Notes: generated from the sequence alone by a model not told the origin. A DNA stretch of 64,000 nucleotides from an uncultured bacterium (GCA_964412225.1 CAYPNB010000003.1:58971-122970); one strand, 5' to 3'. Positions 7,701 through 62,088 are shown, counted from the first letter of the stretch. Translations and numbers: made by a program.

Positions 7701-7728
7701 ATTATATTACTTGAATGGAGACTGTCAA
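7701..7728 (-). promoter_or_regulatory. sigma70-type promoter of the C25 gene
   Basis: Exact consensus TTGACA-N16-TATAAT on the minus strand. Confidence 0.88.
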
Positions 7729-7739
7729 ATGTGTATTAT
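7711..7739 (+). promoter_or_regulatory. sigma70-type promoter (leaderless) of the DUF2520 operon
   Basis: TTGAAT-N17-TATTAT, then 7 nt to ATG 7747; no SD. Confidence 0.6.
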
Positions 7740-7746
7740 TAGCAAA

Positions 7747-8487
7747 ATGGGTACAATCAGAGTAAAAATTGTCGGCCGCGGGAAAGTCGGTACCGCATTT
7801 TCCTGGCATTTATCTCGATTAAAATACCATGTGGTGGATAGTAGAATTCCAGCCGGGGCGGTTGATGTAGTTTTCATCACGGTGCCGGACCGGAAAATTT
7901 TTTCGGTGTTCAAAAAAATTCGCAATCAGCTTAAACCAGGGGCGTTAGTCGTTCACTGTGCTGGTGTATTCGGAATTGAAGTATTCAAAGGAGCTGAGAA
8001 GCGGAAATTGGAAACACTTGCTTTACATCCGGTGAAAAGTTTTTCCAATGTGAAACAGGCAATTCAGGATCTCCCGGAAGGATATTTTGTTTTGGATGGA
8101 ACTCTTAGGGGTTTAACTTTTGGAAGACAGTTGGTCAAACAGTTAAAAGGAAGGGCAATAGTGGTTCGGAGTAAGGACCGGCCACTTTATCATGCGATGT
8201 GCGTTTTTGCCTCAAATTTTATTCACCCGTTATTCTGGGGCGTAGAGAGAATCGCCAAAGAGTTGGGGTTTTCTGAAAAGAAAAGTCAGACGATAATGCT
8301 GCCACTAACGATGACTGTTTTAAAGAACATTGCCGCAAAAGGTTCAATTAACAGTTTAACCGGGCCGGTGAAGCGGGGGGATTGGTTAACGGTGAAAAGG
8401 CATTTGAGCGCACTGAAAAATCGGGTACCGGAAGTTGCACCGCTATATGAAGATTTAACCGAGTGGTTGAAAAGGCTGAAAGGATAA
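7747..8487 (+). CDS. Rossmann-like/DUF2520 oxidoreductase (PanG-like)
   Basis: IVGRGKVG, FITVPD, HCAG, LHPVKSF, YHAMCVFASNF, LTGPVKRGD. Start moved to ATG 7747 because the ORF-track start lies inside the promoter. Confidence 0.88.
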   Translation: MGTIRVKIVGRGKVGTAFSWHLSRLKYHVVDSRIPAGAVDVVFITVPDRKIFSVFKKIRNQLKPGALVVHCAGVFGIEVFKGAEKRKLETLALHPVKSFSNVKQAIQDLPEGYFVLDGTLRGLTFGRQLVKQLKGRAIVVRSKDRPLYHAMCVFASNFIHPLFWGVERIAKELGFSEKKSQTIMLPLTMTVLKNIAAKGSINSLTGPVKRGDWLTVKRHLSALKNRVPEVAPLYEDLTEWLKRLKG

Positions 8488-8488
8488 A

Positions 8489-11420: not shown

Positions 11421-12061
11421 ACTTTAAATTCTGGCGTGGTCTATTAGTTAGAGCATTTTTGGTTCTGCCGGTGTTGGTTAATGCACAGACCGGCGAACGA
11501 ATTGCCGAAGGGTTGAAACAGAAGGGGTTGAGTCCGGAACTGGTGGTTTTCCTTGTTGCCACCCTGCCGATAGTTGAGCTGCGGGGGGCGGTCCCAATTG
11601 GCAATAATCTTTTTAATCTACCGTTGCCGAAAACGATTTTTCTTTCTGTCACCGGGAATATCCTGCCGATATTTTTGATTCTTTTGCTGTTGGAACGAGC
11701 GGTGGTCCTTTTGGGGCATATACCACTATTCAAGCGTTTTTTTGACTGGCTTTTTCAGCGAACCAGAAAAAGGAGCGGAGTAATCGCCAGATTTGAGTTC
11801 TGGGGGTTAGTTATTTTTGTTGGTATACCACTGCCGATGACCGGTGCTTGGACCGGAGCGGTTGCGGCAGTGCTTATGGGTATGTCTTACTGGCGGGCGC
11901 TTTTCGGCATATTTCTGGGAGTGCTGATGGCGGCGGTAATCGTAACTAGCCTTTCCTTGATGGGATGGTGGGGAGGTATTATTGCCGGCGCAATTATAAT
12001 GGCGATTGTCTTTTATCAGTGGCTGGGGAACAGAGACCGGCGTCGCCCAACGGATAACTAA
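11417..12061 (+). CDS. COG2426 small multidrug-export-type membrane protein; probable ATA start at 11417 (first canonical start TTG 11459)
   Basis: LPIVELRGAVPIG, FVGIPLPMTGAWTG. The upstream frame is open and encodes a signal-like NFKFWRGLLVRAFLVLPVLVNA. Confidence 0.8.
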   Translation: MNFKFWRGLLVRAFLVLPVLVNAQTGERIAEGLKQKGLSPELVVFLVATLPIVELRGAVPIGNNLFNLPLPKTIFLSVTGNILPIFLILLLLERAVVLLGHIPLFKRFFDWLFQRTRKRSGVIARFEFWGLVIFVGIPLPMTGAWTGAVAAVLMGMSYWRALFGIFLGVLMAAVIVTSLSLMGWWGGIIAGAIIMAIVFYQWLGNRDRRRPTDN

Positions 12062-13973
12062 ATGAAGTGGACAGGTCAGGTTGATAGGTGGGGACCAGTT
12101 CCTGTAGAGCCTGTTTTATTGCCGGCGGGGTAAGAAAATCAATTTTTGACTCCAGTTCCGAAAGTTTACCCAGTAATTCTGGATAAGAATAGGAATGAGA
12201 TATTCTTGCCCGGTAAATACGATTGTGCTCGGTAGCGACCGTCCCTTCTTCCGCGGTAAGCAGTTCTTCAAACAACTTTTCTCCCGGTCGGGTTCCAGTA
12301 ATGATTATTGGAATGTCAACGTTAGGAGTCAATCCAGCAAGTTCTACCATCCGGTGCGCCAGGTCCCAGATGCGTACCGGATTGCCCATATCCAGAACAA
12401 AGACATCGCCGCCTTTACCCATGGCCGCTGCCTGAAGCACCAAAATCACCGCTTCGCTCGTCAACATCAGATACCGTTTCATCTCCGGATGGGTAACGGT
12501 GAGCGGCTGGCGTTTGGCAATCGCCTCTCGGAAAATGGTGGAAACACTGCCCCGACTGTCAAGAACATTACCAAATCTGACCGTCAGAATTTTCATATCG
12601 TTTAGCCCGTTCATTGCCGCAACAAGCATTTCGCCGAGCCTTTTACTTGCGCCCATAACGCTGGTAGGATTAACCGCTTTGTCGGTGGAGATGTAGATAA
12701 AGGTTCGGGTACGGTAGCGAACGGCGGTTTTGGCAACAATGTGACTGCCCAGAACATTTACCTTTATTGCTTCTTCCGGATGAAATTCAAGAATCGGAAC
12801 GTGTTTGTAAGCGGCGGCATGGAAAACAATCTCCGGTTGGGATTCGGCAAAAACCCTTTCTACCTCCTGGGCATGGGTGATGTCCCCAAGAAACGGGATG
12901 ATTTTCAAGTTGGGATGGGTGAGGCGAAGTTCTCTTTCAATATAAAACAGGTTGGAGTCATCTCTTTCCAAAAGAATTATCGCTGCCGGATTTAATCGGG
13001 CGATTTGACGGCAGAGTTCGCTTCCGATTGACCCCCCAGCACCGGTTACCATTATCCTTCTGCCGGTAAAAGTTTTTCTTATCTGGTTGACATCAATTGT
13101 TACCGGTGGTCGCCCGGTGAGTTCGTGAATACAGAGTTTCTCCAGGGCACCGAGGTCAGAACGATCCTCCAGAATATCAACCAGCGAGGGCATCGTTTTT
13201 ACCTCAACGTCTTTCAAACGGTGGAGACGGGCATAGAAATCCCCCAGACTGAAACCGGGATTGGCTTCCAAAAGCACAAGGACAACCTCAATCCGGTACC
13301 GGGCGATTATCGCTTCAATTTCATCAGTCGTGCCCACCACTTCAATTCCCTGTTCGTAGTTACCCACCTGGTCAGGATCAGGAGTAACAATTCCGGCGAT
13401 AAAGTAGTGGAAATTGCCAAGCCGGCGAAGGATGTTGGGCAAGAAGTAACCGTGACGGGCAGAAATGGCGATGAGGGTTCGTTTGCCTTCTGCCCGGGTG
13501 AATAACGGTTCTACCAGAAGCCTTTTACTACCCCGAAATGCGGCAAGAAAGAGAAATAAAACTATGCCGTTCAGAACCGGGCTGGTGGAATTAAGTTCCC
13601 GCCACCAGGGAATGGTACGGGCAAGGAAAAGGGCGCTGGTGGTTAAGACAGTACTGGCAAAGATTTTTCTAAGGTCACTGAGGGAAAAAGTTACCCAAGC
13701 CAAAGAGTAGTTCCGCAAAAGGATATTGGTGATAATGGTCAGGATAGCGGTTGTTCCGGCAAGGATGGGCAGGCGGGGAGAAAGTATGTTGCCGTTATCG
13801 GGGACAAGAAAATTTGCCACAATTGTGGCGATGATTGCCATCACTCCATCGCCGATAAGAAAAAAAGCGCCCCGTCTACTGCCCTTGAATCGCACCAGAC
13901 GGGCAATGGACGCCTGTAACTGAGAAAGGGTTTCCTGAAGTGTGTAACCGGCGCTAACCGACGATAACGACAA
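11994..13973 (-). CDS. capD: Membrane-bound nucleotide-sugar 4,6-dehydratase (CapD/PglF/WbpM family)
   Basis: N-terminal TMs; TGAGGSIGSELCRQI, FHAAAYKHVP, ISTDKAVNPTSVMGASK, VRFGNVLDSRGSV, RPGEKLFEEL. Confidence 0.92.
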   Translation of the reverse strand: MSLSSVSAGYTLQETLSQLQASIARLVRFKGSRRGAFFLIGDGVMAIIATIVANFLVPDNGNILSPRLPILAGTTAILTIITNILLRNYSLAWVTFSLSDLRKIFASTVLTTSALFLARTIPWWRELNSTSPVLNGIVLFLFLAAFRGSKRLLVEPLFTRAEGKRTLIAISARHGYFLPNILRRLGNFHYFIAGIVTPDPDQVGNYEQGIEVVGTTDEIEAIIARYRIEVVLVLLEANPGFSLGDFYARLHRLKDVEVKTMPSLVDILEDRSDLGALEKLCIHELTGRPPVTIDVNQIRKTFTGRRIMVTGAGGSIGSELCRQIARLNPAAIILLERDDSNLFYIERELRLTHPNLKIIPFLGDITHAQEVERVFAESQPEIVFHAAAYKHVPILEFHPEEAIKVNVLGSHIVAKTAVRYRTRTFIYISTDKAVNPTSVMGASKRLGEMLVAAMNGLNDMKILTVRFGNVLDSRGSVSTIFREAIAKRQPLTVTHPEMKRYLMLTSEAVILVLQAAAMGKGGDVFVLDMGNPVRIWDLAHRMVELAGLTPNVDIPIIITGTRPGEKLFEELLTAEEGTVATEHNRIYRARISHSYSYPELLGKLSELESKIDFLTPPAIKQALQELVPTYQPDLSTSFSYPLGDAGLCSPATDKRQSPL

Positions 13974-14000
13974 TTTCCGCTCCCTCCTTAATTGTATATG

Positions 14001-14016
14001 AGCAAAGTCCGTGCCA
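14001..14016 (-). promoter_or_regulatory. sigma54 (-24/-12) promoter of capD
   Basis: Minus strand TGGCAC-GGACT-TTGCT matches TGGCAC-N5-TTGCW; followed by SD AAGGAGG and TTG 13973. Confidence 0.8.
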
Positions 14017-14201
14017 GGTATTCTATTCGGGTGTGTCTTATTAACTATAAGAATTTCTTAACCTTATTACTTCAGCAGGGTTGACGGTTAGATGCGACAG
14101 CAAAAATTGGATTAAGAGATTCAGAGCTAACTATTTGAAATACAATGACTAAAAATGTGACACTAACAAAAAAATCGGCTGGCTTAAATTGGTTTTATGC
14201 T

Positions 14202-16100
14202 TTAGTAGGAAACTTTTTGAAGAAACATTCTAACTTTATCACTTTCCTGCGAATTGGGTTCTAATTCTAGAAATTTTGTCAGGTAAAATCGGGCGCTATC
14301 CGGTTCCCCTTCCAGGGCGAACACGATTCCTTTGTTTTCAATTGCCGCGGAATATTCTGGATAGTAGGTCAGGCTGAGGTTGAAATCAAATAGAGCGCCG
14401 GTAATGTCGCCTTTGGCATAGCGGAGCATGCCACGCCGGTTGATGCTGGCGGCAAATCTGCGGCAGAGATCCTCGGTAGCAACGTCATACCGTCTCAAAC
14501 TACGATATCTTTGGGGATCCGGGAATGTAAGGTTTGCCGGCGGGTCAATCAGGCTATCATATTGGGGGCGGAATTCATAGGTTAGGCCGTGCAGTTTGAG
14601 TCGGAAATTGCGCCATTCTTCAAGATGGTTCCGAAAGTCCCGGGGGAAATAGAAAACCCGGTAAGAGGCGAGACCGGAGAGAAGAATTAATTTAATTTCT
14701 GCAATTGTTTTCGTTGCCTTTTCGCCCAAAGAGCGGCCGGTATTTTGATTGCCTTTCTGCCAGAGTTGGCTGGCCAGCAGGAAGGCGGAGTCGGGGATAG
14801 GCAAACGGGATTGTAGTTGTTTGAGATACCAGGGAAAAGCGAGGTGATGTTCACTGACTACTGTGATACCGCGGAGGCTATCCGGACCGAGGTTGAACCA
14901 GTGAAGAATCTGGACAAGGCTATAGTCATCAGTAAAGAGCACCGCCCGGTCGGGAAGTTCGCTCAATACTGTTCTGCCCAGATCGGAAAGGCTGTGAAAA
15001 CCGGCACGGTTTTGGCGCGGAAAGGAGACAACTGTCAGGATAAACAAAACGGCACCGATAAGACCTGTAAGCAGGTTGCGCAATTTTTTCTGTTCTAGCC
15101 AATGGATACCAAGGCTTAACAAAATAGCAAAAAGAAAGTAAACCGGGAGAAAATAACCTTCTTTGTCCGGGATGTTGTAGGCAAAGACGGCGATGCTCTG
15201 AAAGACAGTTCCAATGACTAATGCCACAAGCAACCTCGGTTTCTCGCGGAGGAGGAAAATCGTTCCGGGAATCAAAAGGATCCAGAGGATGTTAAATTGT
15301 CGGAACAAAACCCGGAGAAAATCGGTGAACTGGAGGATTAAGTACTCACCACCGCCCGCGAGAAAACGATAACGGTAAACCCCGGCGGTAATATAACTGA
15401 TGAATTCGGTGATAGAATTCACACCACCCCAAGAAGGCAGGTTCCGGGAGCGAAAGAGAAGGGAGATATAAAGAAGGGGACCAAGCGTCATTAAGACAGC
15501 AATGAGCACCCATTGCCAGAATTTAAGCTTGTGGCGCTGAGGGGAAGACAAAAGCACCAGAAAACCGGGTAGAGAGGTGACGATAAAAAGATGGTTGGCT
15601 AGTGCCAGACCAAAACTGAAGGCGAAAGGAAAAATGTCTCCAGGCGTCCGTGTCTCAGCGTAACGAATTGCCGCATAGATAGTAAGAGCAAAGAGAAAAA
15701 CCTGCAGGCTGTATACTTCAATTACCGTTGCCTGCTGCCAGAGTTCAAATGAGGTTGCCCAGATAATAGCACCGAAAAGCGCAGGAGTTGACTTTCGGGT
15801 TAGTCGATAAACTATCCAGTAGAGAACAAAAGAAGAACCGGCGGCGGCAAGGGCGGAAACGAAATTGATGCGAAAAGGCAATGACAAAAGCGGAATAGAA
15901 CGAACAATGTGCAGCAGGAGAAGTAAAAGTGGGTAGCCGGGAGGGTGGGCAAGACCATAAGAGCGGGTGACGACAACAAACTCCGCGCTGTCCAGCCAGT
16001 AAATGTCTCTGCAGAGGGTGATCAGGTAAATCAGAAGCGGAAGAAAAAAAGACAGAAACGAAAGGCCGGTACTTGACCGCTCCTGACCTTTCTGGCGCAC
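14202..16100 (-). CDS. DUF2723/TMEM260-like GT-C fold glycosyltransferase with C-terminal TPRs
   Basis: WLDSAEF..GLAHPPGYPL, SFELWQQATVIEVYSL, LANH, multiple TMs, TPR-like tail. Confidence 0.85.
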   Translation of the reverse strand: MRQKGQERSSTGLSFLSFFLPLLIYLITLCRDIYWLDSAEFVVVTRSYGLAHPPGYPLLLLLLHIVRSIPLLSLPFRINFVSALAAAGSSFVLYWIVYRLTRKSTPALFGAIIWATSFELWQQATVIEVYSLQVFLFALTIYAAIRYAETRTPGDIFPFAFSFGLALANHLFIVTSLPGFLVLLSSPQRHKLKFWQWVLIAVLMTLGPLLYISLLFRSRNLPSWGGVNSITEFISYITAGVYRYRFLAGGGEYLILQFTDFLRVLFRQFNILWILLIPGTIFLLREKPRLLVALVIGTVFQSIAVFAYNIPDKEGYFLPVYFLFAILLSLGIHWLEQKKLRNLLTGLIGAVLFILTVVSFPRQNRAGFHSLSDLGRTVLSELPDRAVLFTDDYSLVQILHWFNLGPDSLRGITVVSEHHLAFPWYLKQLQSRLPIPDSAFLLASQLWQKGNQNTGRSLGEKATKTIAEIKLILLSGLASYRVFYFPRDFRNHLEEWRNFRLKLHGLTYEFRPQYDSLIDPPANLTFPDPQRYRSLRRYDVATEDLCRRFAASINRRGMLRYAKGDITGALFDFNLSLTYYPEYSAAIENKGIVFALEGEPDSARFYLTKFLELEPNSQESDKVRMFLQKVSY

Positions 16101-16105
16101 AGTTA

Positions 16106-16133
16106 AGTTTAAATACTATCTCTGCTTAGTCAA
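16106..16133 (-). promoter_or_regulatory. sigma70-type promoter (leaderless) of the DUF2723 gene
   Basis: TTGACT-N16-TAAACT, 5 nt to GTG 16100; no SD. Confidence 0.7.
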
Positions 16134-22047: not shown

Positions 22048-23091
22048 CTATTTGGTGCGGAGAATCAACTTCTCGTTCCCACCGATGTTTTCCAGAATTC
22101 TGCCGGCGCCCCGGACTACGCTCTCAATGGGATTTTCAGCGACATATACCGGCAAGTTGGTTTCTTCTTTTACCAACAGATCAAGTCCCCGCAGAAGGGC
22201 GCCGCCACCACACATATAAATTCCACGGTCTACGATATCAGCCGCCAGTTCTGGCGGTGTCTTCTCTAATGCCAGACGGACCGCATCAACAATCAGAGAA
22301 ACCGGTTCTTCAAGTGATTCCCGGACTTTAGTGGATGTTATTCGGATAGTTTTGGGAATACCGGAAACCAGGTCTCTGCCTTTTACTTCCATTGTTTCTT
22401 CAGCACCGGTGGCATAAGCAGAACCGATGGCAATTTTGATGTTTTCCGCAGTTTGTTCCCCGATAATGAGATTATAGTTCTTCTTTATGTAGTTGATTAT
22501 CGCATCGTCCATTTCATCGCCTGCTACTCGGATTGATGCAGCGTTCACCACCCCGGAGAGTGCCACAACCGCAATTTCGGTTGTCCCACCACCGATATCA
22601 ATCACCATGTTGCCGGTCGGGGCGTCGACCGGGAGTCCTACTCCGATTGCTGCGGCAATCGGTTCTGATACCAGGTAGATTTCCCGGGCACCGGATGCCT
22701 CAACCGAATCCCGTACCGCCCGCTTTTCTACCTCAGTGATTCCCGATGGTACGCAGACAATAACCCGGGGCCGGACAAACAGTTTTTTCCGCTGGACCAT
22801 CCCGATGAAAGTTTTGAGCATTATTTCCACCATTCCGAAGTCGGCGATAACGCCGTCCTTCATCGGGCGAACCGCCTTGATTCCTTCTGGGGTTCTGCCT
22901 AGCATTCTTTTTGCTTCTGTTCCAACGGCCACCACCTCGTGGGTTATCTCATCAACAGCAACAATAGACGGCTCACGGAGTTGAATGCCTTTACCGCGAA
23001 CATAAATCAAAGTTGAAGAGGTCCCGAGGTCAATGGCGATGTCGTTGACGAACCGCTCAGTAATGCTCCGGAAAAAAGTGTTAATACTCAC
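22048..23091 (-). CDS. mreB: Rod shape-determining actin MreB
   Basis: AIDLGT, RPMKDGVIADF, DIGGGTTEIA, CGGGALLRGL. Confidence 0.97.
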   Translation of the reverse strand: MSINTFFRSITERFVNDIAIDLGTSSTLIYVRGKGIQLREPSIVAVDEITHEVVAVGTEAKRMLGRTPEGIKAVRPMKDGVIADFGMVEIMLKTFIGMVQRKKLFVRPRVIVCVPSGITEVEKRAVRDSVEASGAREIYLVSEPIAAAIGVGLPVDAPTGNMVIDIGGGTTEIAVVALSGVVNAASIRVAGDEMDDAIINYIKKNYNLIIGEQTAENIKIAIGSAYATGAEETMEVKGRDLVSGIPKTIRITSTKVRESLEEPVSLIVDAVRLALEKTPPELAADIVDRGIYMCGGGALLRGLDLLVKEETNLPVYVAENPIESVVRGAGRILENIGGNEKLILRTK

Positions 23092-23096
23092 CTCAT

Positions 23097-23125
23097 AGCC
23101 TAATCTAAACGGTCTCGTAAGTCAA
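23097..23125 (-). promoter_or_regulatory. sigma70-type promoter (leaderless) of the mre operon
   Basis: TTGACT-N17-TAGGCT, 5 nt to GTG 23091. Confidence 0.6.
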
Positions 23126-23187
23126 GTTTATTCTCTTTTACCGGTAAATGATGGGGTTAAATGCAACACGAAACCTTAACCGTTTTC

Positions 23188-23215
23188 TTGACTCAGGGTT
23201 TGGCTTTTTTATAAT
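23188..23215 (+). promoter_or_regulatory. sigma70-type promoter of the ferredoxin-sppA operon
   Basis: TTGACT-N16-TATAAT, 19 nt to ATG 23235. Confidence 0.85.
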
Positions 23216-23234
23216 CGAAAAGCTTTTAAAGGTT

Positions 23235-23747
23235 ATGGCACTAAAACGCTATCAACGAACCGGGGTGCTGCAAAAGGCGGATTTGCGGCCTGGCTGTTTT
23301 TTGCCATCAAGTGAGCGTTTGAAAGCCGGACCAGTGGTAGTTGTGGAATGTGTGGAAAATATTCCCTGTAATCCCTGTGCTTATGCCTGCCCCCGGAAGG
23401 CAATTACTGTAGCCAATCTGACGGCGACGCCACAAGTTGATTTTTCCCGTTGTAACGGTTGTGGTTTATGTGTTGCCCGATGTCCGGGACTGGCGATATT
23501 CGTGATAAATTTAACCTATTCCCCCAAAGAAGCTACCGTTACGATGCCTTATGAGTTGCTTCCGGTCCCCGAGCCAGGTGAATCGGTTATCGGTCTTAAT
23601 CGTGAGGGGAAACGAATATGCAGTGCCCGGGTGGTAAAAGTGCTAAATACTAGAGTGCAGAACCACTGTGCGGTAGTAACGGTAGCTGTCCCCAGGCGTT
23701 TCTGGAATGATGTTCGGGCAATTAAACTGAACAGAGGAAAGCGATGA
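23235..23747 (+). CDS. 2x[4Fe-4S] ferredoxin-like subunit (gamma-type subunit of proline/sarcosine dehydrogenase complexes)
   Basis: ECVENIPCNPCAYACP and CNGCGLCVARCPG. Start placed downstream of the promoter. Confidence 0.85.
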   Translation: MALKRYQRTGVLQKADLRPGCFLPSSERLKAGPVVVVECVENIPCNPCAYACPRKAITVANLTATPQVDFSRCNGCGLCVARCPGLAIFVINLTYSPKEATVTMPYELLPVPEPGESVIGLNREGKRICSARVVKVLNTRVQNHCAVVTVAVPRRFWNDVRAIKLNRGKR

Positions 23748-30527: not shown

Positions 30528-30534
30528 CTGTTTT

Positions 30535-30562
30535 ATTTTACCCATACAATTAACTAATGCAA
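30535..30562 (-). promoter_or_regulatory. sigma70-type promoter (leaderless) of the ferritin-like gene
   Basis: TTGCAT-N16-TAAAAT, 7 nt to ATG 30527. Confidence 0.6.
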
Positions 30563-30598: not shown

Positions 30599-30610
30599 GT
30601 AAACGGTGAT

Positions 30611-40562: not shown

Positions 40563-41561
40563 TTATATCACAAGGACACCGAAGGTTCCCCGTACGGCTT
40601 TCCCGATAATCCTGGCATTAGGAAGGGAAGCGAGGAACTTTTTGGCTTTATCCGGAGAAACAAAAATAACCATACCCATTCCCATATTAAATGTGCGGTA
40701 CATTTCTTCATCAGGAATATTGCCCAGCCGTTGGATAAGCCGGAAAATCGGTTTGGGTCGCCAAGAGGATTTTTTTATGATGCAAGAGACCTCAGCGGGC
40801 AACAACCGGCTGATGTTGTCGTAAAAGCCGCCGCCAGTTATGTGGGCAAGCGCTTTTATTTCTCTCAGAAGGGGATAAACTTGTTTAAAATAGCAACGAT
40901 GTGGCTGAAGAAGTTCTTCTCCCAGCGGACGGTTTAATTCTTTAAATCGGGAGTTAACGGTAAATCGGTTCATCTCAAAGAAGACCTTACGGGCAAGGGT
41001 ATAGCCATTAGTGTGGAGACCGGAGGAGGGAATACCGATGAGCAAATCACCGGGTTGAATGGAGTTGTGATTAACAATTCTGTCATATTCAATAACCCCG
41101 ACGATAAACCCGACCAGGTCAAACACCCCCCGATAATAAACCCCGGGCATCATCGCCGTTTCTCCACCCACAAGCGAGCATTTGACCTGCCGGCATGCCC
41201 GCACTAGTCCGCGAACGATATCAATCAACTGGCGGTTAGAAAGGTCGGTATGGGCGATGTAATCCAGGAAAAACAACGGTTTGGCACCCAGCGTTAAAAT
41301 GTCGTTTACACAGTGATTAACAATATCAATACCAATGGTATCATAGCGCTTCATCATTCGGGCAATAATCGTTTTTGTTCCAACCCCATCACAACTGGCA
41401 ACCAGAACCGGACCCGACATTTGCGGCATTTTAAACAAAGCGCCAAACAAACCGAGCTCGGAGAGTACACGAGGGGAAAAAGTTTTCTTCACCAGAGAAC
41501 CGATCGTCTTTTTTACTGTGTTCATTCGGTCAATATCTACACCGGCGGCACGATAATTCAT
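40563..41561 (-). CDS. purM: Phosphoribosylformylglycinamidine cyclo-ligase (AIR synthase)
   Basis: YRAAGVDI, DGVGTK, GGETAMMP, SSGLHTNGY, AHITGGG, TFNMGMG. Confidence 0.96.
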   Translation of the reverse strand: MNYRAAGVDIDRMNTVKKTIGSLVKKTFSPRVLSELGLFGALFKMPQMSGPVLVASCDGVGTKTIIARMMKRYDTIGIDIVNHCVNDILTLGAKPLFFLDYIAHTDLSNRQLIDIVRGLVRACRQVKCSLVGGETAMMPGVYYRGVFDLVGFIVGVIEYDRIVNHNSIQPGDLLIGIPSSGLHTNGYTLARKVFFEMNRFTVNSRFKELNRPLGEELLQPHRCYFKQVYPLLREIKALAHITGGGFYDNISRLLPAEVSCIIKKSSWRPKPIFRLIQRLGNIPDEEMYRTFNMGMGMVIFVSPDKAKKFLASLPNARIIGKAVRGTFGVLVI

Positions 41562-41567
41562 AGTAGA

Positions 41568-41595
41568 AATTTAACCAAATTGCCCTAACGGTCAA
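41568..41595 (-). promoter_or_regulatory. sigma70-type promoter (leaderless) of purM
   Basis: TTGACC-N16-TAAATT, 6 nt to ATG 41561; no SD. Confidence 0.75.
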
Positions 41596-41871: not shown

Positions 41872-41899
41872 TTGACTGGCGTTGATATTTAAATATATT
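41872..41899 (+). promoter_or_regulatory. sigma70-type promoter of the EF-G paralog
   Basis: TTGACT-N16-TATATT; leadered, with SD AGGAGG before GTG 41945. Confidence 0.78.
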
Positions 41900-41944
41900 A
41901 AAGCTCAAGCAAATGAATACTGTTATCTATTTCAGGAGGAAATT

Positions 41945-44700: not shown

Positions 44701-45194
44701 TTTGTGGCTGGGACAATTAAAACCGTGACCAATGCGGCAATACTTCTACCCGAAATTGCAAAACATGTACCTTCTGTAGTTTTTGCCTTAATGCCGATTT
44801 TATCAATTTTTACTTCCAGAAGCCGAGCGATATTTTTTCTGATTAAATCGGCATAAGGGGCAATTTTCGGCCGATCACACACTAAAGTACAATCAACGTT
44901 CCCAATTTGCCAGCCCAGTTCTCTCATCTTTTTGGAAACGGCGAGAAGGAAAACAGCGCTACGGGCATTTTTATATGCGGGGTCAGTGTCTGGGAAAAGT
45001 ACCCCAATATCCGGCATTGCCAACGCACCAAGTAAAGCGTCGGTAATAGCATGAAGGAGGACATCGCCATCAGAGTGCCCTTTTAACCCTTTTTGACAAG
45101 GAATGAAGACCCCACCTAAAAAAAGTGGGCGTCCTTTCTTTAATAAATGGGCGTCAAACCCAATACCGGCACGATAAGATTTTTTATTGCGCAA
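44697..45194 (-). CDS. ispF: 2-C-methyl-D-erythritol 2,4-cyclodiphosphate synthase
   Basis: GIGFDAH, GHSDGDVLLHAITDALLGA, DIGVLFP, KAKTTE. TTG 45194 is the only start downstream of the promoter. Confidence 0.93.
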   Translation of the reverse strand: MRNKKSYRAGIGFDAHLLKKGRPLFLGGVFIPCQKGLKGHSDGDVLLHAITDALLGALAMPDIGVLFPDTDPAYKNARSAVFLLAVSKKMRELGWQIGNVDCTLVCDRPKIAPYADLIRKNIARLLEVKIDKIGIKAKTTEGTCFAISGRSIAALVTVLIVPATK

Positions 45195-45201
45195 CTTAAA
45201 T

Positions 45202-45229
45202 ATTCTAAACATCATCGGAATGAAGTCAA
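45202..45229 (-). promoter_or_regulatory. sigma70-type promoter (leaderless) of ispF
   Basis: TTGACT-N16-TAGAAT, 7 nt to TTG 45194. Confidence 0.75.
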
Positions 45230-45266: not shown

Positions 45267-45294
45267 TTGACATTTTCATAATAATCAATAAGAT
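45267..45294 (+). promoter_or_regulatory. sigma70-type promoter (leaderless) of thrS
   Basis: TTGACA-N16-TAAGAT, 6 nt to ATG 45301; no SD. Confidence 0.8.
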
Positions 45295-45300
45295 AAAAGT

Positions 45301-47202
45301 ATGTTAAGTGTTATTGTCAATGGAGCTCCTCGTAAAACAGCGAGAGGGGTAGATGTAGGTCAAGTGCTCTCCGACCCAGAAGCCATTGCGGCCCGGGTTA
45401 ACGGTAAGTTGGTGGATTTGTCGTTTCTCATAGAAGAAGAGGCGGTAATAGAATCGGTACACTTTGACTCCAAGGACGGAAGAGAAATTTTCTGGCATTC
45501 CGCTTCTCATTTGATGGCCCAGGCGGTAAAGCAACTTTATCCCGAAGCAAAGGTCACCATAGGCCCGGCGGTTCCGGAAGGATTTTACTATGATTTTGAC
45601 GTCCCCCAGCCATTCACCGAAAAAGACTTGCCGGCTATTGAAGAACGAATGCGGGAACTGGCCGATAAAAAAATTCCGATTGTCCATAAATTTCTTAATC
45701 GCGCGGAAGCGATTGAAATTTTTAGGCAACGAGGAGAAAATTATAAACTGGAGATACTTAAGGAAATCCCGGACGATAAAATTTCAGTATATGAACAGGG
45801 AGATTTTATTGACATCTGTCGGGGACCACACCTCCCTGACACCGGTAGAATAAAGGCGATCAAACTTTTGAGTGTAGCCGGAGCCTACTGGCGGGGAGAC
45901 GAGAGAAATCGTATGCTATCCCGGATTTACGGTGTGGCGTTTCCCGATGAAAACATGCTCAAGGTATGGCTTGAGCGCATAGAAGAAGCACGGCGCCGGG
46001 ACCACCGAAAATTGGGACCAGCCCTGGATTTGTACAGTTTTCATGAAGAAGCCGGAGCGGGTTTGGTTTTCTGGCACCCGAAAGGTGCTACAGTACGACG
46101 TCTCATCCAGTCTTATTGGGAGAAGGAACACCTTGCTGCCGGCTACCAACTTGTGGTTACTCCCCATATCGCGAGAAGTGAACTTTGGCACCGTTCTGGT
46201 CACTATGACTACTATCGAGAAAATATGTACGTTATTCCGGTAGAAAACGAAGAATTGGTTTTAAAGCCGATGAACTGTCCGGGGCATATTATGATTTATC
46301 GAACAAAGGTTCACTCTTACCGGGATTTGCCTTTACGAATGGCAGAGTGGGGAACAGTATACCGTTACGAACGTTCTGGAGTTCTTCACGGCATGATGCG
46401 GGTTCGCGGTTTCACCCAGGATGATGCTCATATATTTTGCACTCCAGAGCAAATAGAACAAGAAATTCACGACGTGGTCGCTCTGTCGTTGAAAATGCTG
46501 CGTGCATTTGGTTTTAAAGAATTTAACGTAGCTTTGTCGGTCAGAGACCCCAAACGCCCCGAACAATATCTCGGAACAAATGAGCAATGGGAACTAGCAG
46601 AAAAGGCTTTGATTAACGCCCTTGAACAACTGGAATTGAATTTCTATCGCGCTGAGGGAGAAGCGGTTTTCTATGGTCCGAAAATAGACATCAACCTTGC
46701 CGATTCACTGGGGAGAGAATTCCAATGTTCAACTTGCCAGTTTGATTTTAATCTCGCCAACAGGTTGGAAGTTTACTATATGGATAAAAACGGACGGCAT
46801 CAACCGGCGTATTTGGTCCACCGCACGGTTTTGGGAAGCATTGAACGTTTTATGGGTATTCTGGTAGAGCATTATGGTGGTGCTTTCCCAACCTGGCTTG
46901 CCCCAATTCAGGTGCGGGTGATGACTGTAACCGAAAAAGAAGCCGATTACGCTCACCAAGTAGCAAATGCTTTAACCGCGGAAAAAGTCAGAGTTGAAAT
47001 TGACCTTAATAGTGATAAAATAACATATAAAATAAGTGAAGCGGAGCGGTTAAAGATTCCTTTTATGCTGATTGTCGGTGCCCGCGAAGCGGCTGCTGGT
47101 AAAGTATCTTTGCGCCGACGTGGCAAAGGGAATCTTGGTGTGTTTCCGTTAGAAGAGGTAATAACGCAAATCAAGGAGGAAAACACTGCAGGAGCATTAT
47201 GA
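45301..47202 (+). CDS. thrS: Threonyl-tRNA synthetase
   Basis: WHSASHL, CRGPH, RDHRKLG, LKPMNCPGH, RVRGFTQDDAH, YGPKID, HRTVLGSIERF. Confidence 0.98.
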   Translation: MLSVIVNGAPRKTARGVDVGQVLSDPEAIAARVNGKLVDLSFLIEEEAVIESVHFDSKDGREIFWHSASHLMAQAVKQLYPEAKVTIGPAVPEGFYYDFDVPQPFTEKDLPAIEERMRELADKKIPIVHKFLNRAEAIEIFRQRGENYKLEILKEIPDDKISVYEQGDFIDICRGPHLPDTGRIKAIKLLSVAGAYWRGDERNRMLSRIYGVAFPDENMLKVWLERIEEARRRDHRKLGPALDLYSFHEEAGAGLVFWHPKGATVRRLIQSYWEKEHLAAGYQLVVTPHIARSELWHRSGHYDYYRENMYVIPVENEELVLKPMNCPGHIMIYRTKVHSYRDLPLRMAEWGTVYRYERSGVLHGMMRVRGFTQDDAHIFCTPEQIEQEIHDVVALSLKMLRAFGFKEFNVALSVRDPKRPEQYLGTNEQWELAEKALINALEQLELNFYRAEGEAVFYGPKIDINLADSLGREFQCSTCQFDFNLANRLEVYYMDKNGRHQPAYLVHRTVLGSIERFMGILVEHYGGAFPTWLAPIQVRVMTVTEKEADYAHQVANALTAEKVRVEIDLNSDKITYKISEAERLKIPFMLIVGAREAAAGKVSLRRRGKGNLGVFPLEEVITQIKEENTAGAL

Positions 47203-48331: not shown

Positions 48332-48406
48332 TCGGGGCGACCAGATTTGAACTGGTGACCCCCAGCACCCCAAGCTGGTGCGCTAAACCAACTGCGCTAC
48401 GCCCCG
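48332..48406 (-). tRNA. tRNA-Pro(GGG), CCA not encoded
   Basis: CGGGGCG/CGCCCCG acceptor stem, CCAGC-TTGGGGT-GCTGG, TTCAAAT loop. Confidence 0.96.
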
Positions 48407-48412
48407 CACCTA

Positions 48413-48440
48413 ATCGTAATAAAAATCTATTTTAAGTCAA
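48413..48440 (-). promoter_or_regulatory. sigma70-type promoter of tRNA-Pro
   Basis: TTGACT-N16-TACGAT, 6 nt to tRNA position 1. Confidence 0.75.
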
Positions 48441-48569: not shown

Positions 48570-48597
48570 TTGACAATCGGAAGGCAATTTTTATAAT
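48570..48597 (+). promoter_or_regulatory. sigma70-type promoter (leaderless or near-leaderless) of the HDAC-GT operon
   Basis: Exact TTGACA-N16-TATAAT, 8 nt to ATG 48606; no SD. Confidence 0.88.
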
Positions 48598-48605
48598 TCA
48601 AACTG

Positions 48606-49532
48606 ATGAGATTTGTTTATTCTGATCGCTATTATTTTGACGTTGGTGCCCATGTGTTTCCCACTGACAAATACAAAAAGGTGAAACAGCGTTTACTTGC
48701 CGAAGGGCTTGCCCAACCAACCGATTTCTTTGAACCTCCAGAACCATCTTTAGACGACATCAGGCTTGTTCATACCAAACAGTACATTGAAGATCTATTA
48801 AACCTTCGCTGGACATCCCGGACGGTTAACTCGGAATTGCCCCTTACGTGGGAGATCGTTCAGGGGTATTTTCTCCACACCTCCGGAACCATTCTGACCT
48901 GTCGCTTTGCGTTAGAAGATAAAATTGCGATGCATTTGGGCGGCGGCTTTCACCATGCATTTGCCGACCACGGCGAGGGATTCTGTTATGTTAATGATAT
49001 TGCCGTGGCAATTAAAAAACTTCAGGTGGAAAATAAAATAGAACGAGCGGCGGTCATTGATTGCGATCTCCATCAAGGCAATGGTACAGCGCGGATATTC
49101 CAAAATGATCCGCGGGTATTTACCTTTTCAATTCACCAGGAACACCTTTATCCCATCAAAGAAAAATCCACGTGGGATATTGGGCTTGAAGACGAAACCG
49201 GTGATGATGAGTATCTCCGTCACTTACTTGAGGCAATCCCCAAAATCATTTTAGAACACAAACCCCAAATGGTTATTTATGTCGCCGGTGCCGATCCCTA
49301 TATGAACGATCAATTGGGGGCCTTAAGATTAACAAAACGCGGGCTGGCTTTGCGGGACCGAATTGTGCTTGAACATTGTTATAAAAACAACGTCCCGGTG
49401 GCAACGGTTCTAGCCGGGGGTTACGCTATTAACACCGAGGATACAGTAGAAATTCACACCAACACCGGACGAGAATGCCTCCGGGTACTCGGGCAATTAC
49501 CGCTTGATTCTGCCTCTGAACCAACTATCTAA
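48606..49532 (+). CDS. Zn-dependent histone-deacetylase-family protein
   Basis: HVFPTDKY, GGGFHHA, GFCYVNDIA, DCDLHQGNG, GADPY..D.LG, GGY. Confidence 0.93.
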   Translation: MRFVYSDRYYFDVGAHVFPTDKYKKVKQRLLAEGLAQPTDFFEPPEPSLDDIRLVHTKQYIEDLLNLRWTSRTVNSELPLTWEIVQGYFLHTSGTILTCRFALEDKIAMHLGGGFHHAFADHGEGFCYVNDIAVAIKKLQVENKIERAAVIDCDLHQGNGTARIFQNDPRVFTFSIHQEHLYPIKEKSTWDIGLEDETGDDEYLRHLLEAIPKIILEHKPQMVIYVAGADPYMNDQLGALRLTKRGLALRDRIVLEHCYKNNVPVATVLAGGYAINTEDTVEIHTNTGRECLRVLGQLPLDSASEPTI

Positions 49533-53713: not shown

Positions 53714-53735
53714 TATAACCTCCTTTTGGTTATTA

Positions 53736-54143
53736 CTAAACCGACCTGATACGCAGTCTTTCAATATACATACTCAGTACCGGAATGCGCCAGTACTGAC
53801 CGGCTGCCGCTTGAATAAAACAAACTATTACGAGTATAATGTATATCAATGAAACTACAGTTCCGCCCACATAATGAATCAGCCATGCCGACAATTTAAA
53901 GACAAATCCGACAAGAATAACGTTGGCGAGAACCTTTCCCAGAATAAAGTCAAGAATATAAACCCCGAACCAGAAGACAACCAAAGTAGCTAGAAGTAAT
54001 CCGCTCTGAATTGCATGAAATCGACAGAATTTGTCGTTAGGCTGGGCAAGTAATGGTAAAAGAAAAAACATGGGGAAATACCCTATCGCTGCCAATATTC
54101 GGATTTCTTGGGGCAAAGACTCGTCTTTTTCGTGCAGTTCCAT
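53736..54143 (-). CDS. DUF4870/Tic20-like small membrane protein (paralog)
   Basis: LAAIGYFPMFFLLPLL, FHAIQS, GQYWRIPVL. Confidence 0.85.
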   Translation of the reverse strand: MELHEKDESLPQEIRILAAIGYFPMFFLLPLLAQPNDKFCRFHAIQSGLLLATLVVFWFGVYILDFILGKVLANVILVGFVFKLSAWLIHYVGGTVVSLIYIILVIVCFIQAAAGQYWRIPVLSMYIERLRIRSV

Positions 54144-54157
54144 TTCTATGTGGTTTA

Positions 54158-54185
54158 ATTATAGCAAGTTAATGTCCTCTGTCAA
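54158..54185 (-). promoter_or_regulatory. sigma70-type promoter of the DUF4870 pair
   Basis: Exact TTGACA-N16-TATAAT, 14 nt to ATG 54143. Confidence 0.85.
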
Positions 54186-54558: not shown

Positions 54559-54586
54559 TTGACTTATAATAAACTCCATTTACCAT
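54559..54586 (+). promoter_or_regulatory. sigma70-type promoter (leaderless) of the lptE-rlmD operon
   Basis: TTGACT-N16-TACCAT, 6 nt to ATG 54593. Confidence 0.7.
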
Positions 54587-54592
54587 AAAGTT

Positions 54593-55108
54593 ATGAAAGT
54601 AATGGTGGCGATAGGGAAAGCAATCTGTTACTGGATGTGTAAAAATTTGCCCTTTTTTGTATTATTTCTGGTTTTTTGCGGGTACTCCACCCACTCCTTA
54701 CTTCCCTCGCATCTTAAAACCGTAGCGCTTGTTGAAATAACGAATTCAGCCCCTCAACCCGGTTTAGCTGAGGAATTAAATGGAATTTTAGTCAAAGCGT
54801 TTAACACTGATAGGACTCTAAGAGTAACTAGCAGCGCTCAAGCAAACCTTGCGCTATCCGTTATTATTAACAATTACTCACGAACTGCTGCTGTCTACGA
54901 TGCCAATCAGGTTATATCGGCCTATGAAATAACGATCGGAGCTCAAGTAGAAGCTTTTGACCAGGTACGTGACGAACCATTTTTCAGCGGCATAGTTTCC
55001 TGTCGCCTTCCTTATAATCCTGATGAAAAATCAGAGGAGGAAGCAATAAAACTCGCCTTAGAAAAACTCGCTCAAGAAATTGTTCGTCAAGTATTAACCG
55101 CATGGTAA
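54593..55108 (+). CDS. lptE: LptE-family LPS assembly lipoprotein
   Basis: Hydrophobic stretch then C-GYS; LPSHLKTVA...N..PGLAEEL; QEIVRQVLTAW. Confidence 0.75.
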   Translation: MKVMVAIGKAICYWMCKNLPFFVLFLVFCGYSTHSLLPSHLKTVALVEITNSAPQPGLAEELNGILVKAFNTDRTLRVTSSAQANLALSVIINNYSRTAAVYDANQVISAYEITIGAQVEAFDQVRDEPFFSGIVSCRLPYNPDEKSEEEAIKLALEKLAQEIVRQVLTAW

Positions 55109-56442: not shown

Positions 56443-56447
56443 GTAAG

Positions 56448-59643: not shown

Positions 59644-59692
59644 TCTTTAATTTGGTAATGCCGGCAAAAGGACAAGCGAAGCCCCGGGAAAT

Positions 59693-60793
59693 TTACCTAG
59701 CCACTTTTATCAACAGAACTCCGGCAACCAATCCGAAGATAATATTGGGTAACCATGCCGAAAGCGCTGGGCTTATTAAATGAGAAGCCCCAAACGCCCG
59801 ACAGGTTTGAATTGTCCCCCAATAGAGAAAGGAAAAAAGTAATCCCAATCCAAGCCCAAACATCACACCGCCCCGACGTAGTTGTACCGAAAGCGGCAAT
59901 CCCAGAAGGAGAACAATTAATCCAATAAGTGCATAAGAAAAACGATAGTGGTACTCAACTTCTTCGCGAGCAACATTCTCCCCAGCTTTTTTCATTTGAA
60001 CAATGTAATTTTTCAGAGTAATAGTAGGAGTCTCTTCTATCGGTCTTGATGCCATTAACCAATCTTCGGACCAATTTTCAAGATTGTTTAAATCCGTTTG
60101 CCTCCGCTGGTTAAAGATCTCTTTCCCAGAAGAGTCAAATTGCCGATAGGTAACATTAATACCTTTCCACCCATTTTTCTCGTAAATTGCTGTCTCACCG
60201 TCGATGCGATAACGAACCCGGCGGTTCCGATCAAGTTCAACAACTAGAAAGTTCCGCATCAAGGTGGGGGTTTCCCCCAATGCAGAAACCACTAACTCCT
60301 GTGTCCAGAGAACACGATTGCCGTCAACCCGATATAGATTTTGCCGTCGTTGCTCCGCCGGTGTAGTGCGTTTTTCAATGACATAACGACGCAAATCACT
60401 AAGTCGGCGATTACAGGGAATCGCAATAAATTCCTGCCACCCAATATACAAGAAAACAGTAGCCACGCCAATTACAACTGCTGGAATAAATATGCGGTAA
60501 ATAATTATTCCGGCACTTTTGAGGGCAGAAATTTCATTATTTCGGGTCATCTGTCCATAGACTACAAACGCCGCCAGAACTAAACTTACAGGATACAGTA
60601 GTATAATTGCTGAAGGTAAACTGTAAAAATAATATCGTAGCACTACTAATAGCGGAGTTTTTCGGGTAGTAAAATAACTAAGCTCCTCAAACAGGTCAAC
60701 GAGAAGATAAATTGTGACCACACTTAATAGCGCGAGGAAAATGAATTTCAACATTTCTTTTAACAGATGGCGGTCGATAGTCTTGATATTCAT
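59693..60793 (-). CDS. lptG: LPS export ABC permease LptG
   Basis: IDRHLLKE, NNEISALKSAGI, LSAWLPNIIFG; downstream of the lptF-like gene. Confidence 0.85.
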   Translation of the reverse strand: MNIKTIDRHLLKEMLKFIFLALLSVVTIYLLVDLFEELSYFTTRKTPLLVVLRYYFYSLPSAIILLYPVSLVLAAFVVYGQMTRNNEISALKSAGIIIYRIFIPAVVIGVATVFLYIGWQEFIAIPCNRRLSDLRRYVIEKRTTPAEQRRQNLYRVDGNRVLWTQELVVSALGETPTLMRNFLVVELDRNRRVRYRIDGETAIYEKNGWKGINVTYRQFDSSGKEIFNQRRQTDLNNLENWSEDWLMASRPIEETPTITLKNYIVQMKKAGENVAREEVEYHYRFSYALIGLIVLLLGLPLSVQLRRGGVMFGLGLGLLFSFLYWGTIQTCRAFGASHLISPALSAWLPNIIFGLVAGVLLIKVAR

Positions 60794-62052
60794 TTTTTAA
60801 TTAACCCTAAATTTCGGGGTATCCGCAAAAGGAATTCTAAAAACGAAAATTCAAAAAAAGTTCGCGCAGTTAATTCCAAAACGGGTAATATGAGAATCAA
60901 ATTTGGCAACCACATCCCGATAAATGGTGTTAATTTACCGCTTTCGGCGAGATTCTCTCCTCCCAATAAAAGGATATAAAAAACAGCAAAAAATATCAAA
61001 CCAACAACAAAACCGGTTCCAATTCCTCCGCGGCGCAACACCAACCCAATCGGTGCTCCAAAGGCGAGAAAAAATAGTACCGAAAAGGCAAGTGATAGGC
61101 GTTTCTGAATTTCGGTAAGCAAACGCGCCATCTCTAATTTTCGGTAACGCAATCTGGTTTTCAATTCTTCTTGGCGAAATCGGGCTACCTCATTTTTAGC
61201 CGATTTATCGCTCAAGGTAGCAAGTTGCTCCTGTAACTTACCGATTTCCCGCTTCATTTCTGTTGCCCGCGCGAAAATCTGATACAGTAACATTTCGTCT
61301 TCAGTGCGATATTCTCGACTTCTTCTTACCAAAGCATCATCTGTTAGAATGTTAATGGTGTGTTGGTGGAAAAAAAGTCGACGATAATTTCTATTGTTAA
61401 CCAATTCGTGCATTTCCCCGTCATAGAGGGTAATAATCATATACTGGTCATCGGGAGTGTAATCAATTTCCCCGCGCGGAGCAGTAATAAATGCAGGAAT
61501 TCCTTTCCCTTGAAGGTGTTGGAATATTAACACATTACCAATTGTGGAGTGCCGTTCATCAATCGTCCCAATGTAAACCATATAACCAGGAAAATCATCC
61601 AGAAAAGCTCGCTCTGCTATCCGTAAAGCGGGTTTCTTGCGCGCAACATCGGTAAGAAGATTTCTAACCCGGTGCTGCGCTTCCGGAAGAATAAATCCGT
61701 TAAAACCTGCCATCACCGGAACAAGGCAAAGCCCTAAAATAAACGCCGGTATAAACAAACGCCAGGAGGGGACGCCGGCTGCCCGAATTACCATTACTTC
61801 ATTGTCCTGCGCCATTCTGCCAAAGGTTATAACTCCCCCGATTAACCATCCTAAAGGTGTAGCAATACTGATAACAAATGGCAAAGAAAGCAGGGCAATT
61901 TCTCCAACCACGATTACCGGAACCCCCTTCCGAACCAGAAGATCAGCAAGGAGAAATAGCCGGTCCATTAGAAGAACAAAAGCCAGCACTACAACGGCAA
62001 ACAAAAGTGCCGGAATAAATTGCCCCAGAACCTCTCGGTACAACAATTTCAT
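60790..62052 (-). CDS. lptF: LPS export ABC permease LptF
   Basis: GRMAQDNEVMVIRAAG, EIQKRLSL, IGMWLPN. Confidence 0.85.
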   Translation of the reverse strand: MKLLYREVLGQFIPALLFAVVVLAFVLLMDRLFLLADLLVRKGVPVIVVGEIALLSLPFVISIATPLGWLIGGVITFGRMAQDNEVMVIRAAGVPSWRLFIPAFILGLCLVPVMAGFNGFILPEAQHRVRNLLTDVARKKPALRIAERAFLDDFPGYMVYIGTIDERHSTIGNVLIFQHLQGKGIPAFITAPRGEIDYTPDDQYMIITLYDGEMHELVNNRNYRRLFFHQHTINILTDDALVRRSREYRTEDEMLLYQIFARATEMKREIGKLQEQLATLSDKSAKNEVARFRQEELKTRLRYRKLEMARLLTEIQKRLSLAFSVLFFLAFGAPIGLVLRRGGIGTGFVVGLIFFAVFYILLLGGENLAESGKLTPFIGMWLPNLILILPVLELTARTFFEFSFLEFLLRIPRNLGLIKK

Positions 62053-62060
62053 TTTAGGCT

Positions 62061-62088
62061 ATCATAACCTGATGACGTTACAAGTCAA
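62061..62088 (-). promoter_or_regulatory. sigma70-type promoter (leaderless or near-leaderless) of lptFG
   Basis: TTGACT-N16-TATGAT, 8 nt to ATG 62052; no SD. Confidence 0.78.

Follow-up and report, generated by a model that had tools for sequence, protein, structure and literature searches.

The 64,000-nucleotide (nt) stretch of DNA analyzed here, which we call the window (CAYPNB010000003.1:58971-122970 of assembly GCA_964412225.1, from an uncultured bacterium), contains ten transcription units in which the start codon of the first gene lies only 5 to 8 nt past the -10 box of a sigma-70-type promoter. Among these are the units headed by thrS, purM, mreB, ispF and lptF. We found the same layout in front of orthologous genes in related genomes of candidate phylum WOR-3, and this conservation is the strongest evidence that the promoters in question may give rise to leaderless mRNAs. 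Taking the evidence together, we consider it likely (a probability of roughly 85%) that WOR-3 bacteria rely heavily on transcripts with no leader or almost none, the transcription start sites (TSSs) being inferred. A preliminary description of the window had proposed such usage for the lineage, and the distribution of promoter-to-start distances, the conservation in orthologues and the fully occupied divergent intergenic regions, each described below, all support it.

Judged by its nearest homologues, the host of the window is a hot-spring bacterium of candidate phylum WOR-3, known as Caldifarciminota in current NCBI naming. The window has a GC content of ca. 47%, and the metagenomic DNA runs that contain it are from hot springs and soil. 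There is no exact-protein database record for its ThrS or Acs; the nearest ThrS loci are those of two metagenome-assembled genomes (MAGs) with 78% identity and of a MAG labeled "candidate division WOR-3" with 71% identity, and the best homologues of IspF, MreB and PurM are overwhelmingly labeled candidate division WOR-3. Gene names were checked against Pfam, and structured RNAs were sought throughout the window with Rfam at its gathering thresholds. Beyond the window, we pooled 16 nonredundant WOR-3 loci (332 kb), which constitute a sample of loci and not a whole genome. As a control, the same scan was run on 839 kb from other phyla (55 loci, which the same ThrS query had retrieved), and loci labeled Nitrospirota were tallied apart from this control.

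For every site, the 70 nt lying 5′ of the start codon were extracted, and the coordinates were verified again. All ten start codons and their distances from the -10 box, as given in the preliminary description, were matched exactly, and none of the sites has a Shine-Dalgarno (SD)-like core in the 18 nt 5′ of the start. Together they define the consensus cTTGAC(a/c/t), a spacer of 16 bp (sometimes 17), TAnnnT and a start codon 5 to 8 nt further on. On the plus strand, the DUF2520 gene (7711 to 7749) is preceded by TTGAAT-17-TATTAT-7 nt-ATG 7747, overlapping the divergent promoter of a C25 peptidase gene. The thrS-infC-rpmI-rplT operon (45267 to 45303) has TTGACA-16-TAAGAT-6 nt-ATG 45301, and the operon headed by an HDAC-family deacetylase gene (48570 to 48608) has TTGACA-16-TATAAT-8 nt-ATG 48606, both boxes being a perfect consensus. 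The lptE operon (54559 to 54595) has TTGACT-16-TACCAT-6 nt-ATG 54593; among the ten, this start carries the greatest doubt, with an alternative ATG at 54635. The minus strand carries the DUF2723 gene, encoding a TMEM260-like glycosyltransferase (16098 to 16133; TTGACT-16-TAAACT-5 nt-GTG 16100), the mreB operon (mreBCD-pbp2-rodA-rlmN; 23089 to 23125; TTGACT-17-TAGGCT-5 nt-GTG 23091) and the gene for a ferritin-like protein (30525 to 30562; TTGCAT-16-TAAAAT-7 nt-ATG 30527, with an imperfect -35 box), as well as purM (41559 to 41595; TTGACC-16-TAAATT-6 nt-ATG 41561), ispF-rhomboid (45192 to 45229; TTGACT-16-TAGAAT-7 nt-TTG 45194) and lptF-lptG (62050 to 62088; TTGACT-16-TATGAT-8 nt-ATG 62052). 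All ten gene names were confirmed by Pfam, where the DUF2723 family is now called TMEM260-like and the ferritin-like protein belongs to the rubrerythrin family. Eight of the ten sites pass a strict filter for TTGAC-N17-19-TANNNT; the DUF2520 (TTGAAT) and ferritin-like (TTGCAT) sites carry one -35 mismatch each.

This layout is kept gene by gene in relatives whose GC content ranges from 39 to 64%, even as spacers, gaps and N-termini diverge. In four further genomes (L001, L002, L003 and L088, the last with a GC content of 0.61), thrS is preceded by TTGAC(A/C)-16-TAnnnT-6-GTG, with spacer and gap sequences that are unrelated among them. The DUF2723 gene was compared in three loci from two further genomes, where it follows TTGACC-16-TAAACT-5-GTG (L081/L083) or TTGACT-16-TACAAT-6-GTG (L082; GC content of 0.64, 39% protein identity). 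In the same three loci, the DUF2520 gene follows TTGAAC-17-TATTAT-6-ATG (L081/L083) or TTGACT-16-TATCTT-7-ATG (L082). Here the gap of 6 to 7 nt is kept even though the N-terminal peptides are longer or shorter by between 10 and more than 30 residues; conservation therefore concerns how the codon is placed with respect to the promoter rather than the coding sequence itself. At mreB, the gap before an ATG or GTG is 6 to 8 nt in five further genomes (L090, L091, L092, L094 and L095; GC content of 0.39 to 0.62). purM has TTGACC-16/17-TAAATT-5/6-ATG in L093, L094 and L095, and lptF has TTGACT-16-TATGAT-6-ATG in L093, with boxes identical to those of the window. The layout at ispF is conserved in three further genomes (L086, L087 and L088).

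RNA polymerase starts 6 to 8 nt past the -10 box and prefers to do so at a purine. In the mechanism that we propose, a housekeeping (sigma-70/RpoD-type) promoter with cTTGAC(a/c/t), a spacer usually of 16 bp and TAnnnT would directly abut the first gene of an operon, and the first transcribed nucleotide would be the A of an ATG or the G of a GTG, or would lie 1 to 3 nt before a TTG. The mRNA leader would then measure 0 to ca. 3 nt, leaving no place for an SD, and translation would presumably be of the leaderless kind, with fMet-tRNA-loaded ribosomes binding the 5′ start codon directly. The remaining units would be served by the same type of promoter, with leaders of 30 to 100 nt and an AGGAGG-type SD, and operon-internal genes would depend on an SD or on translational coupling. 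Counted in this way, about half of the units that encode proteins in the window (ca. 10 of roughly 19) are predicted to be leaderless, and the predicted leaderless share of the WOR-3 promoter motifs that we sampled is about a quarter to a third.

Three divergent regions bear directly on where transcription begins. Between their start codons, the thrS-ispF, mreB-Fer4 and DUF2520-C25 gene pairs are separated by 106 bp, 56 bp and 58 bp (the last with overlapping promoters), and each region is filled by two back-to-back promoters, which leaves space neither for a further promoter nor for a leader RNA. This full occupation speaks against the alternative that survives best, which we nevertheless regard as quite unlikely: that the main transcription originates from promoters further upstream, with the TTGAC and TAnnnT boxes acting as secondary promoters or as AT-rich, unstructured aids to SD-independent initiation, as in Bacteroidota. 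Such a scheme could draw on the fact that the genome is SD poor overall, and on the traits that WOR-3 shares with the Fibrobacteres-Chlorobi-Bacteroidetes (FCB) group (cargo of the type IX secretion system [T9SS]), most FCB genomes being of the non-SD, leadered type known as group B. However, a translation enhancer has no need of a TTGAC placed exactly 16 to 17 bp from a TAnnnT, and it is the boxes and their spacing that are conserved in orthologues, not the sequence in between. Moreover, the motif resembles that of E. coli and not the TTTG/TAnnTTTG of Bacteroidota, and leadered genes of this same genome use a canonical AGGAGG.

If transcription starts next to the coding sequence, as we favor, consequences follow for regulation. 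A T-box leader occupies ca. 200 nt or more, and the thrS operator is a stem-loop. It had been suggested that thrS has no room for either, and this is borne out by the distance of only 6 nt from the -10 box to the start in five WOR-3 genomes, by the 106-bp intergenic region and by the Rfam scan, which found no T-box or riboswitch in the window, three tRNAs being its sole matches. With promoters so placed, thrS, purM, mreB, ispF and lptF presumably cannot be controlled via leader RNAs, be they T-boxes, operators or riboswitches.

For nine of the ten genes, Pfam positions and homologue lengths supported the promoter-adjacent codon as the likely true N-terminus. Where the Pfam domain is N-terminal, it starts within 8 to 16 residues of the N-terminus proposed here; MreB is 347 amino acids (aa) long in the window and in most WOR-3 database entries, and WOR-3 PurM proteins are nearly all 332 aa. 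It is very unlikely, in our judgment, that the promoters are real and the true starts lie further downstream, with ordinary leaders that happen to resemble coding sequence. The TGS strand of ThrS, the YR.AGVDI motif of PurM and the Rossmann strand of DUF2520 begin a few residues from the proposed starts, profile position 3 of LptF falls at residue 8, and profile position 2 of IspF falls likewise at residue 8. In ispF, no in-frame ATG, GTG or TTG lies between the proposed TTG and the conserved core, and across orthologues the distance from the start to the -10 box is fixed at 5 to 9 nt despite changes in N-terminal length. The idea of downstream starts can point to lptE, where ATG 54635 would yield a more typical lipoprotein signal peptide, and to gene callers having departed from the proposed start in some cases. 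For instance, the database copy of the window IspF begins at ATG 45212 and has 171 aa (P0001), six codons too many compared with the TTG form of 165 aa. Automatic calling also misplaced a start in L093, where LptE (501-589) has been called from an internal TTG, giving a protein of 131 aa that is 40 codons short and has lost its signal peptide. Two further candidate starts were rejected by us: the longest-open reading frame (ORF) start of DUF2520, TTG 7711, is the -35 box itself, and the upstream ATG 30545 of the ferritin-like gene lies 5′ of the -10 box.

The length of the gap depends on the start codon. Across the pooled loci, GTG lies 5 to 6 nt past the -10 box, ATG mostly 6 nt and TTG 6 to 9 nt, a pattern that fits initiation of transcription at a purine ca. 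7 nt past the -10 box. ATG and GTG are probably 5′ terminal, and TTG is probably preceded by 1 to 3 nt beginning at a purine. Promoter-adjacent GTG starts occur at thrS in four relatives as well as at mreB and DUF2723, and promoter-adjacent TTG starts occur at ispF in four divergent genomes and in at least two further genes. The gap before the ispF TTG is 7 nt in the window, 9 nt in L086 and L087 and 8 nt in L088. In these three relatives, an in-frame stop within the -10 region makes an upstream start impossible, and no other canonical start occurs between the TTG and the conserved YR.GIGFDAH core. We rejected the upstream ATGs at 45215 and 45212 of the window, which overlap the -10 box at a place where orthologues have in-frame stops. 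The earlier proposal that leaderless initiation operates even with GTG and TTG is well supported for GTG; TTG is supported as the start codon of ispF but less so as a 5′-terminal codon, a leader of 1 to 3 nt being likelier. In Mycobacterium smegmatis, leaderless initiation accepts AUG and GUG alone, and TTG fails (PMC4633059); the conserved ispF TTG is therefore the only feature at odds with the known rules. That WOR-3 ribosomes accept a UUG start at, or within 1 to 3 nt of, the 5′ end of an mRNA is possible, if rather doubtful.

The preliminary description also predicted a genome-wide peak of -10-to-start distances at 5 to 8 nt. We ran this histogram on the 332-kb WOR-3 sample with the strict motif, counting as the downstream gene an ORF of 100 aa or more that begins no further than 150 nt away, and the peak was found at 5 to 9 nt. 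Of the 18 strict motifs that precede such an ORF in the window itself, 8 sit 5 to 8 nt before its start. The pooled loci contain 126 strict motifs, 103 of them with a downstream ORF, and 38 of these 103 have a gap of 5 to 9 nt (5 nt, 8 cases; 6 nt, 15; 7 nt, 7; 8 nt, 5; 9 nt, 3), the mode being 6 nt; a second, broad class, set apart from this peak, extends from 31 to 100 nt. In the loci of other phyla, the corresponding proportion was 3/73 (Fisher P = 1.4e-7). Block shuffles of the first 225 kb yielded 18.9 strict motifs versus 91 observed, a ca. 5-fold enrichment, and 0.0 motifs lying 5 to 9 nt before a long ORF versus 27 observed. A relaxed, generic sigma-70 scan gave 44 sites versus 33.3 ± 6.0 after shuffling; the relaxed promoter/terminator scan, being barely above shuffles, was discarded as evidence, and the strict motif was used instead. 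Chance, by which AT-rich hexamers would merely happen to fall near start codons, could appeal to that small excess but is a negligible explanation for a strict motif that is some 5-fold enriched, that in no shuffled set fell 5 to 9 nt before a long ORF, that is conserved in orthologues and that contrasts so clearly with other phyla.

A comparable layout came to light in the loci tallied separately. In MAG loci labeled Nitrospirota, 19 of 43 motifs with an ORF display TTGAC-16/18-TAnnnT followed 5 to 9 nt later by a start (L005, L009, L012, L022, L029, L031, L036, L039, L040, L043, L056 and L076), one example being a divergent lysS/tpiA-like gene pair in L029 and L039. A search of the literature found no report of a leaderless-type layout in Nitrospirota.

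Several observations weigh against heavy leaderless usage, or against particular cases of it. Suspected leaderless genes had served as anchors for retrieving the pooled loci, and these anchors account for 19 of the 38 cases; with them removed, ca. 19 of 84 motifs lie at 5 to 9 nt, still well above the other-phyla control. An SD is also missing from many operon-internal genes of this SD-poor genome. We therefore dropped the missing SD as a diagnostic of leaderless genes, and it is promoter adjacency, not SD absence, that constitutes the evidence. RNA runs searched with the window thrS and with an L083 gene pair gave no matches, and when all run types were searched with one region of the window and one of L083, the matching runs were all typed as DNA. 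Among individual genes, the ferritin-like gene has the weaker -35 box; the genes compared with orthologues were thrS, DUF2723, DUF2520, ispF, mreB, purM, lptF and lptE. At lptE, the ATG at 54635, 3′ of 54593, would give a more canonical lipoprotein signal peptide, and the position of the lipobox favors this shorter form; the start is ambiguous, and the sole orthologue examined (L093) is operon internal. Finally, given the failure of TTG in mycobacteria, the ispF case calls for ribosomes with another codon tolerance or else for a leader of very few nucleotides.

One promoter type serves leaderless-type and leadered genes alike. In the pooled loci, 2 of 38 leaderless-type units have an SD-like core, versus 23 of 48 leadered units with the same type of promoter, and the spacer was 16 bp in 28/38 and 29/48, respectively. 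Within the window, acs, the C25 peptidase gene, fusA2 and capD had been described as leadered genes with an SD, and each proved to be so. On the minus strand, acs (5835 to 5925) has TTGACA-16-TATACT, a leader of ca. 54 nt, the SD AAAGGAGG and ATG 5837, and the C25 peptidase gene (7650 to 7728) has TTGACA-16-TATAAT, a leader of ca. 42 nt, the SD GGAG and ATG 7652, its leader and SD (GGAGG) being kept in L081/L083. The EF-G paralogue "fusA2" (plus strand, 41872 to 41947) has TTGACT-16-TATATT, a leader of ca. 40 nt, the SD AGGAGG and its true start at GTG 41945. capD (Polysacc_synt_2; minus strand, gene at 11994-13973) has the SD AAGGAGGG followed by TTG 13973 (13971 to 14000). The C25 and DUF2520 promoters are interleaved: the C25 -35 box (TTGACA, minus strand) falls within the spacer of the DUF2520 promoter (window 7650-7749), an arrangement kept in L081/L083.

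Two other genes of the window are predicted to have very short leaders. A 135-aa hypothetical protein with no Pfam match is encoded on the minus strand downstream of TTGACA-16-TATAAT-14 nt-ATG 54143 (54141 to 54185), with a leader of ca. 8 nt and no SD. The 4Fe-4S ferredoxin-domain (Fer4) gene on the plus strand (23188-23237) has TTGACT-16-TATAAT-19 nt-ATG 23235, a leader of ca. 13 nt and no convincing SD; its longest-ORF start at 23148 was rejected, as it sits 5′ of the gene's own promoter.

Within the thrS operon, infC (plus strand, 47173 to 47188) has the SD AAGGAGG at 47173-47179, followed after 6 nt by CTG 47186; this CTG overlaps the 3′ end of thrS. No canonical start occurs before the conserved N-terminal DRPKANEQIR motif, and the corresponding codon is CTG in L001 and L002 and ATT in L003. 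Autoregulation of initiation factor 3 (IF3) via a noncanonical start codon is known, and the CTG and ATT codons of infC fit this picture.

The economy of 5′ sequence seen at protein-coding genes may have a counterpart at tRNA genes. The promoter of tRNA-Pro(GGG) on the minus strand (48400 to 48440; gene and promoter together, 48332-48440) reads TTGACT-16-TACGAT and lies 6 nt from the mature 5′ end at 48406. The orthologous gaps are 8 nt in L002 (13029-13139), 7 nt in L088 (713-788) and ca. 11 to 12 nt in L003 (12309-12425). Other tRNA genes (Arg at 30610; Asn and Glu in L086) begin 8 to 12 nt past a -10 box. Since tRNA genes thus begin 6 to 12 nt past the -10 box, the start of the transcript relative to the motif is shown independently. 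By this reckoning, tRNA 5′ leaders in the lineage appear to be only 0 to 5 nt long. If zero-leader promoter placement extends to tRNAs, the lineage as a whole may be sparing with 5′ leaders, and the need for 5′ processing could be reduced as well.

Comparison with described systems indicates that this is a known bacterial leaderless architecture in a new lineage, distinguished by a strong -35 variant and a conserved TTG start. The preliminary description cited high leaderless fractions in Actinobacteria, Deinococcus and haloarchaea, correctly according to the literature. In group C of the GeneMarkS-2 classification, the Pribnow box lies 6 to 8 nt from the start and 25 to 50% of operons are leaderless (PMC6028130); this group holds 1,028 of 4,769 bacteria, mainly Actinobacteria and Deinococcus-Thermus, and 90% of the FCB group falls into group B (PMC6028130). 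The architecture also matches an earlier survey of leaderless genes by Zheng et al. (PMC3160421) and is experimentally established in Mycobacterium (PMC4633059). WOR-3 shares with group C members such as Mycobacterium and Streptomyces the use of an SD on internal and leadered genes and of both ATG and GTG as starts. However, its GC content is mostly moderate (39 to 64%) and not uniformly high, and it has a conserved promoter-adjacent TTG (ispF), a codon that fails at this position in M. smegmatis. In Deinococcus, a TANNNT lying 6 to 7 bp before the ORF has been validated experimentally and drives leaderless mRNAs for about a third of ORFs; it occurs throughout the phylum Deinococcus-Thermus, whose members are often thermophilic extremophiles, and results in the misannotation of start codons (PMC12340547). 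The placement of the -10 box is the same in WOR-3, but most Deinococcus genes lack a classical -35 box (PMC12340547), whereas nearly every WOR-3 case has a near-consensus cTTGAC at 16 to 17 bp.

The resemblance to archaea and Bacteroidota is more partial. With group D (archaea, including haloarchaea), WOR-3 would share many first genes that have no 5′ untranslated region and start at the 5′-terminal codon. However, archaea employ a TATA box and TFB recognition element (BRE) ca. 26 nt upstream together with eukaryote-like initiation factors (PMC6028130), and the WOR-3 promoters are of the sigma-70 type. With the Bacteroidota of group B, it shares many genes without an SD and FCB-like T9SS C-terminal sorting domains. 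Group B mRNAs, in contrast, are leadered, carry a non-SD motif before all genes and are transcribed from -33 TTTG/-7 TAnnTTTG promoters, whereas in WOR-3 the cTTGAC-16-TAnnnT signal is found at first genes only and AGGAGG serves as the SD elsewhere. Compared with the thrS operator of E. coli and the T-box of Firmicutes, WOR-3 has the same operon (thrS-infC-rpmI-rplT) with a likewise noncanonical infC start, but no leader is predicted. Our search of the literature found no paper linking WOR-3 or Caldifarciminota with leaderless mRNAs.

The FCB-like features concern two peptidases of the window. An M6-type peptidase (plus strand, 31295-34567) carries FG-GAP repeats together with a T9SS C-terminal sorting domain (Por_Secre_tail). 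The C25 peptidase (minus strand, 6030-7652) has a weak match to an FlgD Ig-like domain. Similar T9SS-type cargo proteins are encoded in related loci. This suggests that the WOR-3 bacterium possesses an FCB-like T9SS.

Both the phenomenon and its computational signature are already well established elsewhere; the value of the present observations lies in the annotation of WOR-3 and in the TTG exception. WOR-3 genomes are almost entirely metagenome derived, and gene callers that expect a ribosome-binding site misplace WOR-3 starts, as with IspF and the L093 LptE, so that annotation models aware of leaderless genes are advisable. The conserved ispF TTG offers a concrete, testable case for the rules that govern leaderless start codons. 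For the lineage as a whole, heavy leaderless usage would be extended beyond Actinobacteria and Deinococcus-Thermus to an uncultured phylum that has been sampled mostly from hot springs, and control by 5′-leader RNAs would be precluded for core genes such as thrS, purM, mreB, ispF and lptF.

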